A stretch of 64,000 bases of DNA from Camelus ferus (lineage: Eukaryota). This document shows positions 31,228-54,757 of this stretch, piece by piece; the first letter of the stretch is position 1; every line of letters begins with the position of its first letter. A model generated the notes under the pieces. It was not told the origin of the DNA. It saw only the letters and a program-made list of their open reading frames with translations, and ran no database searches. A program made the translations under genes and the position numbers. The stretch is taken from the NCBI RefSeq assembly GCF_009834535.1, contig NC_045696.1, forward strand, positions 45,882,001 through 45,946,000. The letters run 5' to 3'.

Positions 31228-32590
31228 TTGCGTTAATTTCCTATTACTGCTATAACAAGTTACTTAAAACAACATAGATTTATTATCTTATAGTTCTCAA
31301 GGTCAGAAGTCCAAAATGGATCTTACTGAGTATAAAAACCAAGGTCAGCAAGGCTGCATTTCTTTTCAAGGCTCTAAAGAGAAGCCAATTCCCTTGCCTT
31401 TTCCAGATTCTAAAGGTCACCTGCAACCTGGACTCATGGCCCCTTCTTCCATCTTCAAAGCTAGCAGTGTAGCATTGATGCCGAGAAGGACCCTGTGCGG
31501 CACGACCACCCCTCAACTACTGCCTCTTGTTTACAGAAAAGCTGGAGTCTGCGAGGCCTCCCTAAAGTCATAGAAGGGCAGGCTCAAGCAGTTGATTATG
31601 ACAAACCTGCAGGCATCAGGGGATGGCAATGACTCTGACCACCTATCTCAACAATTAACTGAGATTATTCCCCTAGCTCCCTTTAAAACTTTCACGGCTG
31701 AACAGAATCTTTGGAGATGGTTTTCTGGGGGAGACGCTGGGGTCGCCAGATTGCAGGCATTCTGAATAAAAGCAACTTTACTTTTTGTGACCAAGGTTGT
31801 TGCTTCCAGGATCATACCCTGCCCCTGCCTTGAATAGAAACCAATTACTCTTATCTAAGTCTCAGGAGGCAGCTGCAGAGAAGAAACAAGAACTGGTTAG
31901 AATCCACGGCCCACGATGAAGGATTTGACTTCCAGTGGACCTCGAGCTTCATTATACGGTCACTGTAATGTATAAACACGCTAAATGACACACCCACCAG
32001 TGCCATGACAGTTGACAACTACCATGACAACCAGAAAAGCCCATACAAGGACGACTGGTTCCATCACAACCAGCAGAAGGACATGATGGTAGAGGCCTCT
32101 CATAAAAATCCACGTGGCCCAGCCGGGCCAGAGCTGTCACTACCAGCCATCTCGGCTGATATCTTCCCCGCTCAAGTTCTTTTCTTCCCTTCTCCCTGCT
32201 TGAGCATTTTCCTTCCTTTTTCTTTTTTGAGAAATAAAGCAGCTTTTTCATTTTGTCCCTCCGCCTCTGCTGCAAAATTTTTCACAGCTGGAAGCAAGGA
32301 CCCACACTCTGGTGGGACTCCAAATTTAGGGGTCTCACTATCCACTAACAGCATCATCATCTAATCTCTCCCTCTAACTCTAACCACCACTTCTGCCAGC
32401 CTTTTCTTCTTTTAAGGATCTTTATGGTTACACTGGGTTCATTCAAATAATCCATGAATAATTTCTCAGTCTGCAGATCCTTAGCTTATTAACATCTACC
32501 AAGTCCCTGTTCCCATGTAACCTAACATATTCACAAGTACCTGAAGATTAGGACATGGACACCTTTGGAGGACCATTATTATGCCTACCA
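31228..32590 (-). mobile_element. MLT1B/C-type MaLR LTR split by an ERV1 LTR insertion
   Basis: tttcctattactgctataacaa...ccatcttcaaagctagcagtgtagcat, resuming after 32350 and ending attatgcctaccaca. Confidence 0.85.
31476..32350 (+). mobile_element. ERV1-type LTR insertion, apparently a composite of two LTR modules
   Basis: TG...CA termini; GCAT duplicated at 31472-31475 and 32351-32354; AATAAA at 31765 and about 32233; U3 core homologous to 1274-1370. Confidence 0.8.
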
Positions 32591-48920: not shown

Positions 48921-49624
48921 AAAAATAAGTAAAAATAAAACAGCCGACATCAATAACTGCATATATATTGCTGCTTACCCATAAACATTAGATTATAAAC
49001 CTATTTTTTGAAAACATTATCAAAAACATATTATTTATATTTTTATGTTAAAAAATAAAACAGATGCCAAAAATACATAATTATAATTATATAACACAAT
49101 TTTTAACGTAATTCAACATTAGTCCTCCAATGTACTTAGTCAATATCCACATCAGATAATTTTTTGTATCCTAAACCAAATTAAGAAAATCACTTACTTC
49201 AAGGAGATTCATCTGTCCTGTATTTATGAACTATTCACAAAAATTGATAACAAGCCACAAAGAAATAATTAACATATTTAAAAAATATATACAGTAAGTG
49301 GGTTGATTACTGTGAGAAAAGGGCCAATTACAGAAGTTTAGACAATATATCTACAATAATACAGAGATTAAAATCACAATATAAAATGTTATAATATGAC
49401 AAATCATTACTTTTCTTATGTAAAGAACTGACACAAACAAATAAATAAAAATAAAAGATCCTCCTATCTGTCATGGAAAAATACCTGAAGAATAATTTCT
49501 TAAACTTCTTGGTTGAAGAAGTAGTTGAAATAGTAAAAATAAATGTGTAATAAACACTTGAACAAATGTTCAACATCACTAATAATCACTTACTTGGTAA
49601 ATTAAATCACTATAATCCAATTTT

Positions 49625-50354
49625 TTTGTTTTTGAGTAAAGGTAGATTTATTCAAAGAGATACACTGAAAGGCAAGAGAAAGGCCAGAAGGTGTGGGGGT
49701 TGGGTGCTCAGATTAAAAGTAGGTACACACTCCACAGACAGAGGGCAGGCCATCTCCACACGGAGGGAGAGAGGTGGCCACGAGGCAGCATGTTACTAGT
49801 TTTTATGGGATCGGTGGCTTAGAGAATGACAAAAGATAGAGGGGAGAAAAGCCTTGGGCTCAGTGGGCTCCTTCACAGCTAGAGAGCTGGTCTCTGCCAG
49901 ATCCTGCAGGCAGTGTCAGCCACCAGCTAAGAGCTACTTGAATCTGCACGGCGCGGGATAAACCCCCTGCCACCCTCCAAAGAGAGGGGAGCTGCAGCCC
50001 AATAGGGAGATCGAGACTATGCCCTTTGAGCCCTGTTTCTTTATGTAAATGCCCCACACGTTGGGCACCAGAGATGATGCAGGAAAACGGATATGGGGCG
50101 TGAGAAGGGCCATGTCCCAGGCTTCGGTTGAGCCCCTGGGATGTGCCCCACCAAGTGTGAGTCCTTGGCTTCACGCAGGAAAGAATTCAAGAGCAAGCCA
50201 CAGTTGAGTAAAGGTAGATTTATTCAGAGAGATACATTAAAAGGTAAGAGAAAGGCCATGAGGTGTGGGGGGTTGGATGCTCAGATTAAAAGTAGGTACA
50301 CACTCCATAGACAAGAGTGCGGGCCGTCTCCAAACAGAGAGAGAGAGGCGTCCG
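49625..50354 (-). mobile_element. Processed (L1-type) retrocopy of a short ERV transcript: R-U5-PBS-leader / U3 end-R-poly(A)
   Basis: R 50354-50205, U5 to 50075, PBS 50070-50051, leader to about 49821, U3 end with CATAAAA 49807-49801, second R to 49634, A tail; TSD ctataat(c/a)caatttt at 49610-49624 and 50355-50369. Confidence 0.9.
50051..50070 (-). promoter_or_regulatory. Retroviral primer-binding site, tRNA-Lys-like
   Basis: TGGTGCCCAACGTGTGGGGC, 4 nt after the LTR end GCATCA; the Lys1,2 PBS is TGGCGCCCAACGTGGGGC. Confidence 0.75.
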
Positions 50355-53312
50355 CTATAATACAATTTTAGTGCACAAAATAAACAATGATTAAAAAACA
50401 AGAACATCCAGTTCTGGAAATGGTGCATTGAAGCAAGGCACTCCCAACCACAACTGATAATAGCCTAAACTGATACAATTTTTATGAAGAACAATCCAGT
50501 CATTAGTTGCTTGGAAACTATCCAAAACCTGTGACCACGTGATTCTGTTTAAAGCTCTGTTTTATGAAATTAAACTGAAAAGATCATTTATGTCAACATC
50601 ACCTATTACTGAATTGCTTGTTACCAGTAAAACACTGGACACAACATAAATATTCAACTTTGGGAAATGATTAAATTCAATCCTGATATATGAATAATAA
50701 AGATTTTACAAAGATTTTTAAATATTGTGAACAACTGTCTATGAAATGGTATTAATAAGAAAGGATACACAAATATTCATTATATTCCCAACTACATAAA
50801 ATGTACTTCGAAGAAGCCTGGAACACAATATTCCAAAAAGTTGAGAGTAACTCTGGCTTTATAGAAGTACCATGAGAGATTTAATTTGTTTTTGCTTTGC
50901 ATGTTTTCAAAACAAATCTGCGTCACTACTATTAGAAAAGACAAGGAGAGAAAATGTTTAAAACATTTAGAAGGAAAAAATAACAAAGAAATATTAGCTT
51001 CTGGCAAGCATTAGTATAATGAAAGGAAGGTAAAAATTAATTTTAAAAGCTTGCTTAAAATTTTTTACTCATTTTCTTTTATGTAATGATTCACTAACTG
51101 ATCTGTTAAAATTCTGTACAAGATTTGTTTTTTTTTTAAATCCTGAAAATCTGAGTTATTCTTTTTAAGAGACTATGATGACTATACACCTACTTGTTTT
51201 CCTTTCATCCTTGCCTACCAGGAAGTACAAGGTCAAGTGTCCTTCTGAGAAAAACAATTATGATATTCTATTTTCTTAACATACTTATATACATACCTAG
51301 CCTACTGCCACTGTCATCTTTATCTTCATCTTCTTAACAGGTTTTATGACAGATTTCTTACAGCAGATGCTGCCATACTATATATATATATATATAATGT
51401 AGAATATTGGGAAACAATTTAAAAGAATTGGCATGGTGATGAGAAATGTTGAATAGTCAATTTGGAACAGAAGTTTTCAACTTAATGGAAGTTTAAAAGT
51501 AAAACTAAATTTAATCAATGTTTTTTACCTTAAATTGTGGGCTCAAGGTAAATTTTAGTTTTTAAGCATAAAGATTATGAAGGTGACTAGAAAGAGAGGC
51601 AGGGAAAACCATTTTCTCTGCAAGAAAAATTGAGCTTATTGCACGTATGGAGAGCTCGTCAATAGGATTAACAGTTGAAGTGCTTCTGATTGTATTATTT
51701 GTCTATGCATACTATTACTCTGTGGCAGCTTTCTCTCATAAAAAAGTCCACTCTTTTATCCTAATCTTGAACAAGTCTTCTCTCTCTGATGTAAAAAGCT
51801 TTCTACCTAATAAATAAGTGAGCTGCTGAAGTGTAGAACAATAAGGTGGCTGCCTTTCATCACCTTCCTAGTTGTGCTTGGGTCTGCTTTCTGTATAAGA
51901 GGATGGCTTACAAATGTCAAGGTTCCATTTCCATCAATTCTCTTCAGGAAACAAATTAGGAAATCTCCTTCAGACTATGTTATCATCATTGTCTGTTACC
52001 AAACTATGGCCTTTTTCTAACATAATTTGATCACTTCTAAATTACACCACATTTTGAATATTCTTGCATCTCTGCGCTACAAATATTGTAATATCATTTC
52101 CCTGTCTTTCAGAGTAAAGCTATGAATTCACTTTTTAAAAATGTTTTTAAAATTTTTTCCCAAAGTGGAATTAAATAATTGTTTGTATTACTCTCAACAA
52201 ATGACAAGAATGATTTAGAAGGTTATAGCTTTATCCCTAGGAATATACATATGCCTTCATATACAAACTCTAAAAAATGTCAGTGTAGCCTGGAAGATTA
52301 ACATTAATCTTCTCAAATTTCGCAAGGGACAAAAATGAGAGTGTTAGCTACTGTGTGAGACTTAGGTGATGTCAGACACCCATATAAAGCATAAAAACTT
52401 TGGTGCTTTATTCGTGATAATTTAGATAAATGTTTGTAATTGTTTTTCCAAACTCAACGTTCGTTAGATTGTTTGGTTGTTATATGAACTGGCTTAGGGT
52501 ACTAATATCTAGAACTTGGAAATTAGTAAAAAAATATTTATGTGAATTGGTCATTTTACCTTTTTAATATTTTATACATAAATTGATTAAAATAATTTCA
52601 AACACACATAATACATAGTTTTCCTGTGCAAAATTAAGACATTGTGAGATTAAAGAAAATGTTGACAACAAACTTAAATTTCAGGGTCCTCCCAAGAGGT
52701 ACCCAACATTAGCAGTAGAGTTTGCATCCTTCTCATTTTTATAGATTTATGTAGAAATACTAAACATGAGATATAATACTATATATGTATTTAATATGTA
52801 TATAAAAGCATATAGTATTTTACATGTATTATATATACATAAACACTAATCCATAAACCTTCCAATAGCAATGTCAGAATGTATCTATTACTACCACTGA
52901 GAATGAGCTTTTTTTCATCTTCCATGATTTACTTACGTAAGTGTCCCCTCCACTTTTTCCCTATAAGGTTGTTTTATTTATTCGTGGAGCTTTCTGTATA
53001 TTCTAAATATTCGTATTTTCATATTATCTATGTTTCAAATATTCTTATATTTTTATTTAATATTGTAAGGTGTCTCTTGTAGTTGAATTTTAATTTAATG
53101 TCAATTTTCCTTCATAAGTTTTGGTTATTTGACTTATTTTAGAAGGGTTTTTTCCAGCCTAAAGATCAAATATGCATTCTTCTATATTGTCTTCCCATAT
53201 TTTTTATAATTTATTTTCACATAAATATATTCAATGTTTAAGTTATTTTGTGAGTTGTGTGAATATCTTAAAAATTTTGTGGAATACATACCAACTTATT
53301 ATCTTATTTACT

Positions 53313-54590: not shown

Positions 54591-54757
54591 CTCTCTCTCT
54601 CTCCCTCTTCGGAGATGGCTCACATTCTATGGAATGTGTACCTACTTTTAATCCGAGCACCCGACCCCAACACCTCGTGGCCTTTCTCTTGCCTTTCAAT
54701 GTATCTCTTTGAATAAATCTACCTTTACTCAACAACAACAAAAATAATGAAATAAAA
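54591..54757 (+). mobile_element. LTR R-region-only retrocopy with A-rich tail (SINE-like)
   Basis: Matches R of the solo LTR (~1526-1664); AATAAA 54712-54717; homology stops at ...ctttactca, then acaacaacaaaaataatgaaataaaa. Confidence 0.85.

Follow-up and report, generated by a model that had tools for sequence, protein, structure and literature searches.

Evidence for a LINE-1-processed copy of endogenous retroviral RNA in Camelus ferus and for related copies across its genome

Results

Organization of the element

We analyzed 64,000 nucleotides (nt) of the Camelus ferus genome (NCBI RefSeq assembly GCF_009834535.1, contig NC_045696.1, positions 45,882,001 to 45,946,000 of the forward strand), hereafter the window, and in it a 730-nt minus-strand element derived from an endogenous retrovirus (ERV). 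The element (L001, the window copy) spans 50354 to 49625, and the two copies of its flanking duplication lie outside these limits. A first-pass annotation had read it as retroviral RNA inserted by LINE-1 rather than by integrase, and had suggested that the 730-nt form may be a camelid retroposon family. In the 5′ to 3′ direction of the element, with regions named as in retroviral long terminal repeats (LTRs), its features are:

50355..50369, minus strand: target-site duplication at the 5′ end, aaaattgtattatag; 14/15 identity to 49610-49624; preceded by ct, giving CT/AAAA
50204..50354, minus strand: 5′ R; AATAAA at 50219-50224; starts at the transcription start common to U3-less copies, upstream U3 absent
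50075..50203, minus strand: U5, ending in GCATCA; aligns with the U5 of the solo LTR at window positions 1177-1794
50051..50070, minus strand: primer binding site; complement of the tRNA-Lys(CTT) 3′ end, 17/18 plus a 1-nt insertion
49821..50050, minus strand: leader (pre-gag), 230 nt; ends about 100 nt short of the splice donor of the ERV group
49821/49820, minus strand: deletion junction; leader joined abruptly to the U3 tail, non-GT-AG, microhomology absent
49780..49820, minus strand: U3 tail, the last 41 nt of U3; TATA-like CATAAAA at 49801-49807
49632..49779, minus strand: 3′ R; AATAAA at 49647-49652, R end 13 nt past this signal
49625..49631, minus strand: A-rich tail (aaacaaa); proper tail 7-9 nt, at most 13 nt counting A's shared with R and the duplication
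49610..49624, minus strand: target-site duplication at the 3′ end, aaaattggattatag

This layout could be read directly and agrees with the annotated one, in which an element without a 5′ U3 begins at an RNA polymerase II (Pol II) start and runs through R, U5, GCATCA, a lysine-type primer site and about 230 nt of leader. The start lies within a few nucleotides of those in L003, L008, L012, L016, L021, L024, L036 and L048; its position stood, and its distance from the C of CATAAAA is 28 nt instead of the roughly 25 nt proposed. Four bases separate GCATCA from the primer site. Further downstream, the annotated order of U3 end and second R was recovered with a U3 tail of 41 nt rather than about 35 nt, and the second R does stop 13 nt past AATAAA, at 49632, where A's replace the ctgtggc... 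(U5) of other LTRs. An A-tail exists, but the last four A of the annotated tail, AAAAACAAAAAAA, belong to the duplication, which leaves a proper tail whose shortness and interruption are as expected for an old copy.

The 15-nt flanking duplication at CT/AAAA was likewise found as annotated, and order-of-magnitude arithmetic puts the odds of a 14/15 match directly abutting both ends by chance at about 1e-7 to 1e-6. The nick site agrees with the consensus at 5/6 positions. Upstream of 50354 lie the duplication and then single-copy DNA, and the element has neither the full TG...CA LTRs nor the 4-6 base pair (bp) duplication of integrase insertions. In other copies the leader runs on via cctctatcgctc...cctgattgg/gtgagc; the window copy has a gap from leader nt 534 to U3 position -41, which takes in the remainder of the leader, gag-pol-env, the polypurine tract and roughly 310 nt of U3. 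Despite this gap its parts are colinear with the order of proviral RNA, and the join is unspliced and unshared among the copies scored. Scans of 49400-50600 with Rfam and for tRNAs gave one sub-threshold chance match in the flank and no tRNA. From its sequence, the window copy appears to have no 5′ promoter, polypurine tract or genes; it would have been dead on arrival, and we infer no function for it.

The parent ERV group and its primer site

Three members of the ERV group lie inside the 64-kb window. A solo LTR of about 618 nt at 1177-1794 (plus strand, tgagac...gcatca) is 85% identical to the LTR of L064 and has the 4-nt flanks ctcc/cttc; both LTRs are of the form U3-R-U5, with the same R and U5 as the window copy. 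At 31915-31997 (plus strand), 83 nt weakly match the U3 of the LTR reference (76%), possibly representing a fragment of a related LTR.

The window copy has zero coding part, and pol domains were examined in its sister copy L063. The Pfam domains found there were RVT_1 (2e-16), RNase_H, Integrase_H2C2, rve (2.5e-19) and MLVIN_C (5e-15), with a weak Gag_MA. The nearest solved structures to the L063 reverse transcriptase (RT) are those of XMRV and MoMLV (E about 1e-20), with foamy virus at 1e-4, and because this RT is closest to XMRV/MoMLV the parent group is classed by its sequence as gamma-like (class I, ERV1).

The lysine-like nature of the primer site, also part of the first-pass annotation, was borne out against the genome's own tRNA-Lys(CTT). 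A pattern search of the same genome gave 8 places, of which two were analyzed, both being tRNA-Lys(CTT) by ARAGORN. In the sister copy L006, the primer site complements the 3′ end of this tRNA (gene L104 plus CCA) at 18/18 positions, compared with 17/18 plus an insertion in the window copy. The 1-nt insertion is found in the window copy, L003, L004, L005, L007, L016 and L029, and not in L002.

A second LTR subfamily, seen for example in the R-only or U3-less copies L043, L058, L110, L114, L131 and L133, has an R that starts ggc(c/t)...tttttgctccct and carries ctctaaataaatc ahead of the cleavage site. Its identity to the reference R is 70-79%, and it has A-tailed copies too, so at least two LTR lineages would have fed LINE-1.

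Sister copies with the same start, end and flanks

A whole-genome search with the 730-nt element gave 43 matches (best 40 of 3976 candidates), nearly all of which cover query positions 7-534 and then enter the common interior. A shared GGCC... start opens many of the copies, and the DNA upstream of it is unrelated between them. In a second sample, picked by leader similarity alone (best 40 of 104 candidates), 20/40 copies lack U3 and have a start no more than about 15 nt from the R start, whereas U3 is present in 16/40; another two have a rearranged R in which U3 was not recognised, and two were left unassigned. Processed copies are about half of the leader-bearing loci and a minority of LTR-bearing loci overall.

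In all ten of the U3-less copies read at both ends, R is followed directly by an A-tail and the flanks carry a duplication of 10-15 nt; several have TT/AAAA-like sites:

L001 (window copy): 15-nt duplication, A-tail
L002: 15-nt duplication, A-tail
L003/L061: 15-nt duplication at TT/AAAA, A-tail
L004/L062: 13-nt duplication, A-tail; 5.4 kb copy
L015/L063: 13-nt duplication, A-tail; 7 kb copy
L024: 12-nt duplication, A-tail
L016: ~10-nt duplication, A-tail
L058: 12-nt duplication, A-tail
L106/L076: 15-nt duplication, A-tail
L110/L118: 10-nt duplication, A-tail

This recurrence of one start, end and flank pattern in independent copies upholds the proposal that LINE-1, and not integrase, inserted retroviral RNA. 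Two of the copies also show splicing. In L024 and L058, cctgattgg is joined exactly to tcttttg, and the unspliced L062 and L063 read gg/gtgagc and ttttaag/ at the corresponding points; such a canonical GT-AG splice can be explained only by an RNA intermediate.

Several further observations concern individual copies. One processed form, about 1.4-1.5 kb long, recurs as L024 (C7:15979457...), L058 (C37:101942217...), L016, L106/L076 (C7:24630772-24632219) and L110/L118 (C1:38205557-38207063). The donor gg/gtgagc of L024 and L058 is joined to the acceptor ttttaag/tcttttg about 330 nt upstream of the 3′ LTR, which would give a small spliced RNA. L003/L061 (C37:61089692-61090320) is a processed copy that ends just upstream of the splice donor with ataaaaatctgatcaactaaaaaaa and has a 15-nt duplication and a perfect TT/AAAA; either premature polyadenylation or a short terminal exon could account for its end. 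The U3-bearing L014 (C37:88608045-88608540, minus strand) and L017 (C37:88623415-88623910, plus strand) are separated by 15 kb, point in opposite directions, share 98.7% identity over 1276 nt and look like the arms of an inverted duplication. L013 is not a recent retrocopy of this pair, from which it differs by 37 mismatches in about 890 nt. The U3-less L021 (C8:4881054...) and L023 (C1:95177779...), on separate contigs, have 5′ flanks that are similar over at least 80 nt, reflecting either insertion into a repeated sequence or duplication of a copy along with its flank. The L005 provirus, considered as a contrast with an integrase duplication, was uninformative, as its flanks (aaac/agta) do not match.

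The 730-nt form in the genome

With a 141-nt query centred on it, the junction at 49821/49820 was spanned by the window copy alone (1/40, best 40 of 104), a search that diverged copies could escape. The first-pass annotation had allowed that an element without other copies of its architecture is a one-off retrocopy, and the uniqueness of the junction leads to that result. The sole look-alike of the overall plan is L002 on contig 7, which is 81% identical and has its own tail and its own 15-nt duplication. Compared with the window copy, its leader is 22 nt longer and its U3 starts 17 nt earlier, and its junction was in turn spanned by L002 alone (1/40, best 40 of 1024).

A quick-method tree built from the 5′ 530 nt at 30 loci pairs the window copy with the U3-bearing L005 and not with L002 (SH-aLRT support of 98). 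Processed and U3-bearing copies are interleaved in the same tree, with 10 changes, equal to the shuffled mean. Judged by these sequence comparisons, the 730-nt form is not supported as a retroposon family, and in its exact form it appears to be a one-off retrocopy.

Deletions starting in the leader

Among about 29 loci read, deletions in four independent lineages start inside one 27-nt CT-rich leader segment, at +0 in the window copy, +12 in L018, +22 in L002 and +27 in L013/L014/L017. The L018 deletion is joined to U5 at a gctc microhomology. Two of these four lineages include copies with a 5′ U3, which indicates that the fragility is not tied to LINE-1.

Both junctions, that of the window copy and that of L002, lack microhomology, and three causes considered for them found no support. 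Splicing was rejected, as the intron ends it implies are CC...TG for the window copy and AC...TT for L002. Leader-U3 RNA pairing as a cause of the breakpoints gave duplex energies that were also reached by 108/300 and 62/300 shuffles. A homology-guided switch at the gaag(at)ccaccaag repeat, which occurs in both leader and U3, was not supported, as neither junction lies inside the repeat.

Abundance of R-only units

A 25-nt pattern of the R end plus AAAAAA (at most 2 mismatches) was found at 573 genome places and its reversed-pattern control at 1, while a pattern of R end plus U5 start was found at 1953 places and its control at 0. We read the first 40 A-tailed R ends listed of the 573, all of them exact matches on contigs 1-6, with none dropped. 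R-only units of about 150 nt, which start at the R start and lack U3, account for 24/40; a further 4/40 start inside R, 1/40 starts inside U3, and 11/40 extend into U3 past the stretch examined. A flank repeat of at least 10 nt accompanies 15/24 R-only units; among 300 mismatched flank pairs the share is 14%. It is this 150-nt unit, and not the 730-nt form, that is the abundant short form. R-only units are either LINE-1 copies of short LTR transcripts or a "solo R" class generated by R-R recombination.

One R-only unit lies in the window at 54595-54745 (plus strand). It starts a few nucleotides into R and ends at the cleavage site, followed by caacaacaaaaa; a clear flank duplication was not seen at this unit.

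Age and presence in sequencing data

The two R regions of the window copy have 16 differences in 148 aligned nt (Kimura two-parameter distance 0.119), and its end branch in the 30-locus tree is 0.088. The mammalian neutral rate is about 2e-9 per site per year, at which these two distances would place the insertion very roughly 25-40 million years ago, an upper bound if the source LTRs already differed. In nineteen sequencing runs of three organisms, the share of words sampled from 49100-50900 that was present is 0.81-0.91. As the flanks make up only about 59% of this interval (the element about 40%), this word share hints that all three organisms carry the insert.

Discussion

Origin of the window copy

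We consider it very probable that the window element is a processed, LINE-1-made copy of RNA from a gamma-like ERV with a primer site fitting tRNA-Lys(CTT). In the series of events that we infer, a source provirus (the closest sampled relative being the U3-bearing L005 on contig 5) was transcribed from its normal start 28 nt past CATAAAA. The RNA would have read through the 5′ R and been cleaved and polyadenylated 13 nt past the AATAAA of the 3′ R. LINE-1 ORF2p could then have nicked the target at CT/AAAA and primed reverse transcription on the A-tail, with synthesis presumably reaching the capped 5′ end of the RNA and a staggered second cut yielding the 15-nt duplication. We lean somewhat towards loss of the middle before or during insertion, either because the RNA was already short, having come from a deleted source provirus, or through a template jump during LINE-1 reverse transcription.

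Several observations weigh against this interpretation. The nick site is CT/AAAA rather than the canonical TT/AAAA, and the proper tail is only 7-9 nt long. The junction is neither a GT-AG splice nor a site of microhomology, which leaves its position unpredicted by any step of the model. The difference between the junctions of the window copy and L002 amounts to one contiguous 40-nt gap, which could mean common descent from a shortened RNA. In a sample selected with the U3 tail plus R (best 40 of 2340), just 1/39 non-self matches is A-tailed and 38/39 enter U5, so that processed copies keeping U3 are a small minority of LTR-bearing loci. The flank at 50355-50750 is single-copy, and a paralogous empty site is therefore nonexistent.

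The strongest competitor to loss before or during insertion concerns only the timing of the deletion: a longer processed copy, of the 1.4-kb spliced or the 5-7-kb genomic type, may have inserted and then lost its middle by genomic deletion, a history that we regard as possible but the less probable of the two. Full-length processed copies of 1.4, 5.4 and 7 kb do exist, and the same 27-nt segment breaks also in L018 and L014/L017, which carry a 5′ U3; the sequence, however, holds nothing that dates the deletion, and a blunt join without microhomology fits end joining and template jumping equally. A dedicated mini-ERV lineage, in which the short RNA of a deleted master provirus was copied repeatedly and the L002 junction is the older one, with the 40 nt a secondary loss in the window copy, would fit the architecture that the two copies share, their separate duplications and tails, and that single contiguous gap. 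Each junction is nevertheless spanned by its own copy alone, the window copy groups with L005 and the primer-site insertion it carries is missing from L002. Its 41-nt U3 tail with the TATA-like motif lies upstream of the 3′ R only, and copies apparently lacking a 5′ promoter could not serve as sources, which also counts against such a lineage. We thus find this explanation unlikely, and a common origin of the window copy and L002 similarly improbable.

A chimera of two templates, in which LINE-1 RT began on an RNA made of U3 tail, R and A-tail and then switched to a second RNA ending in the leader, is doubtful to much the same degree. Both halves come from the same ERV group but possibly from separate molecules, the two R copies differ by 11%, and prematurely ended leader RNAs existed, as L003/L061 with its own A-tail illustrates; yet no sampled copy ends at leader nt 534, and the R-R difference is that expected of initially identical R regions at the age of the family, where tree end branches have a median of 0.073. 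Scarcely credible, finally, is a provirus or solo LTR made by integrase and worn down by later deletions. Ordinary LTRs are the commoner form, both by pattern (1953 vs 573) and in the U3 tail plus R sample, but three erosions would have had to stop exactly at the transcription start, the cleavage site and a 15-nt direct repeat. These three features recur in every U3-less copy read at both ends, and the A-tail stands directly after R, where U5 would be expected.

Comparison with known systems

Processed pseudogenes of the human ERV group HERV-W, which are LINE-1-retrotransposed proviral transcripts of Catarrhini, are recognized, in the part of the source available, by an R-U5 5′ end, a U3-R 3′ end, poly(A), TT/AAAA and a duplication of 5-15 bp (Grandi et al., 2016, PMC5016936, quoting Pavlicek et al., 2002). 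The same text counts 135 of them among 213 HERV-W loci and reports that processed and proviral forms spread at about the same time (PMC5016936). According to the abstract of a review, HERV-W alone among the HERV groups is specifically mobilized by LINE-1 (PMC5537654). For the closely related ERV-W of New World monkeys, the portion of a later paper drawn on here reports no LINE-1-processed copies and calls the reason unexplained, and it describes occasional HERV-W copies from which part of the leader has been spliced out (PMC6995185).

The window copy resembles HERV-W copies in its R-U5 start, U3-R end, A-tail, TT/AAAA-like site, duplication within the 5-15 bp range and gamma-like parent, and the camel group does so in the interleaving of processed and proviral copies in the tree and in having some copies with part of the leader spliced out. 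It differs in its host and in its tRNA-Lys primer site (Trp in HERV-W), and the window copy differs in that its coding region is missing entirely, as is most of the 3′ U3. Unlike HERV-W as described in those excerpts, the camel group has as its commonest A-tailed form the 150-nt R-only unit (24/40).

SINE-R and SVA elements are LINE-1-mobilized hominoid retroposons that contain the env end and part of the LTR of HERV-K, SVA (SINE-R-VNTR-Alu) being moved by L1 in trans. Like SVA, the window copy represents an LTR-derived, non-coding, polyadenylated RNA that moves only via LINE-1; SVA forms a genuine family whose members share junctions, and it has its own transcription and is still active, whereas the 730-nt form has a unique junction and, judging by its layout, no 5′ promoter. 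Template switching during LINE-1 reverse transcription produces chimeric retrogenes; the known ones usually fuse two RNAs that are unrelated, a complete small RNA forming the 5′ side. The abrupt, unspliced join of RNA segments inside an A-tailed insert flanked by a duplication recalls these chimeras, but the segments of the window copy come from one ERV group and are in colinear order.

Within artiodactyls, the accessible part of one report describes ARTenvV of Hippotraginae, which LINE-1 copied from a spliced ERV env mRNA and which has a TTAAAA site, a 14-bp duplication and a brief stretch of A's (PMC9604959). The window copy is likewise a LINE-1-made copy of ERV-derived RNA in an artiodactyl. 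As portrayed there, ARTenvV is a single retrocopy of a co-opted env gene; the window copy in contrast derives from non-coding leader/LTR RNA and belongs to a group with hundreds of retrocopies. A repeat survey of Camelus and alpaca describes large alpaca ERV1 clusters of short elements without open reading frames, and the part of it available does not mention processed ERV copies (PMC8605555); a link between these clusters and LINE-1-processed copies is speculation. In the literature searched, supplements aside, we found no report of LINE-1-processed ERV copies in camelids, of LINE-1 copies of this group or of R-only units. LINE-1-processed ERV pseudogenes are a known kind of element, of which the window copy is a new, one-off example.

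Conclusion

At the level of the group, we consider the evidence evenly balanced on whether this gamma-like ERV group with a tRNA-Lys primer site is a second, non-primate case of wholesale LINE-1 mobilization, on a scale at least that of HERV-W. Its dominant product would be the R-only unit, which extends from the transcription start of the LTR as far as the LTR's own poly(A) site, a Pol II-made retroposon resembling a short interspersed element (SINE) and fed by about 2000 LTRs. Longer copies would be genomic, canonically spliced, prematurely ended or internally shortened, and the 730-nt element would be a rare by-product of the deletion-prone CT-rich leader segment.

A practical point for annotation is that R...R-flanked copies with duplications look like short "LTR retrotransposons" to finders that rely on structure. 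The window element itself is an inert fossil, and its value is as a pointer to a pattern at the level of the group, in which about half of the loci with a leader are processed, spliced copies occur and R-only units number in the hundreds. An independent ERV group showing the same behaviour in another mammalian order offers a comparison for what makes retroviral RNA a good LINE-1 template, with a long R, a poly(A) signal located within it and strong transcription from the LTR in the germline as candidate features.

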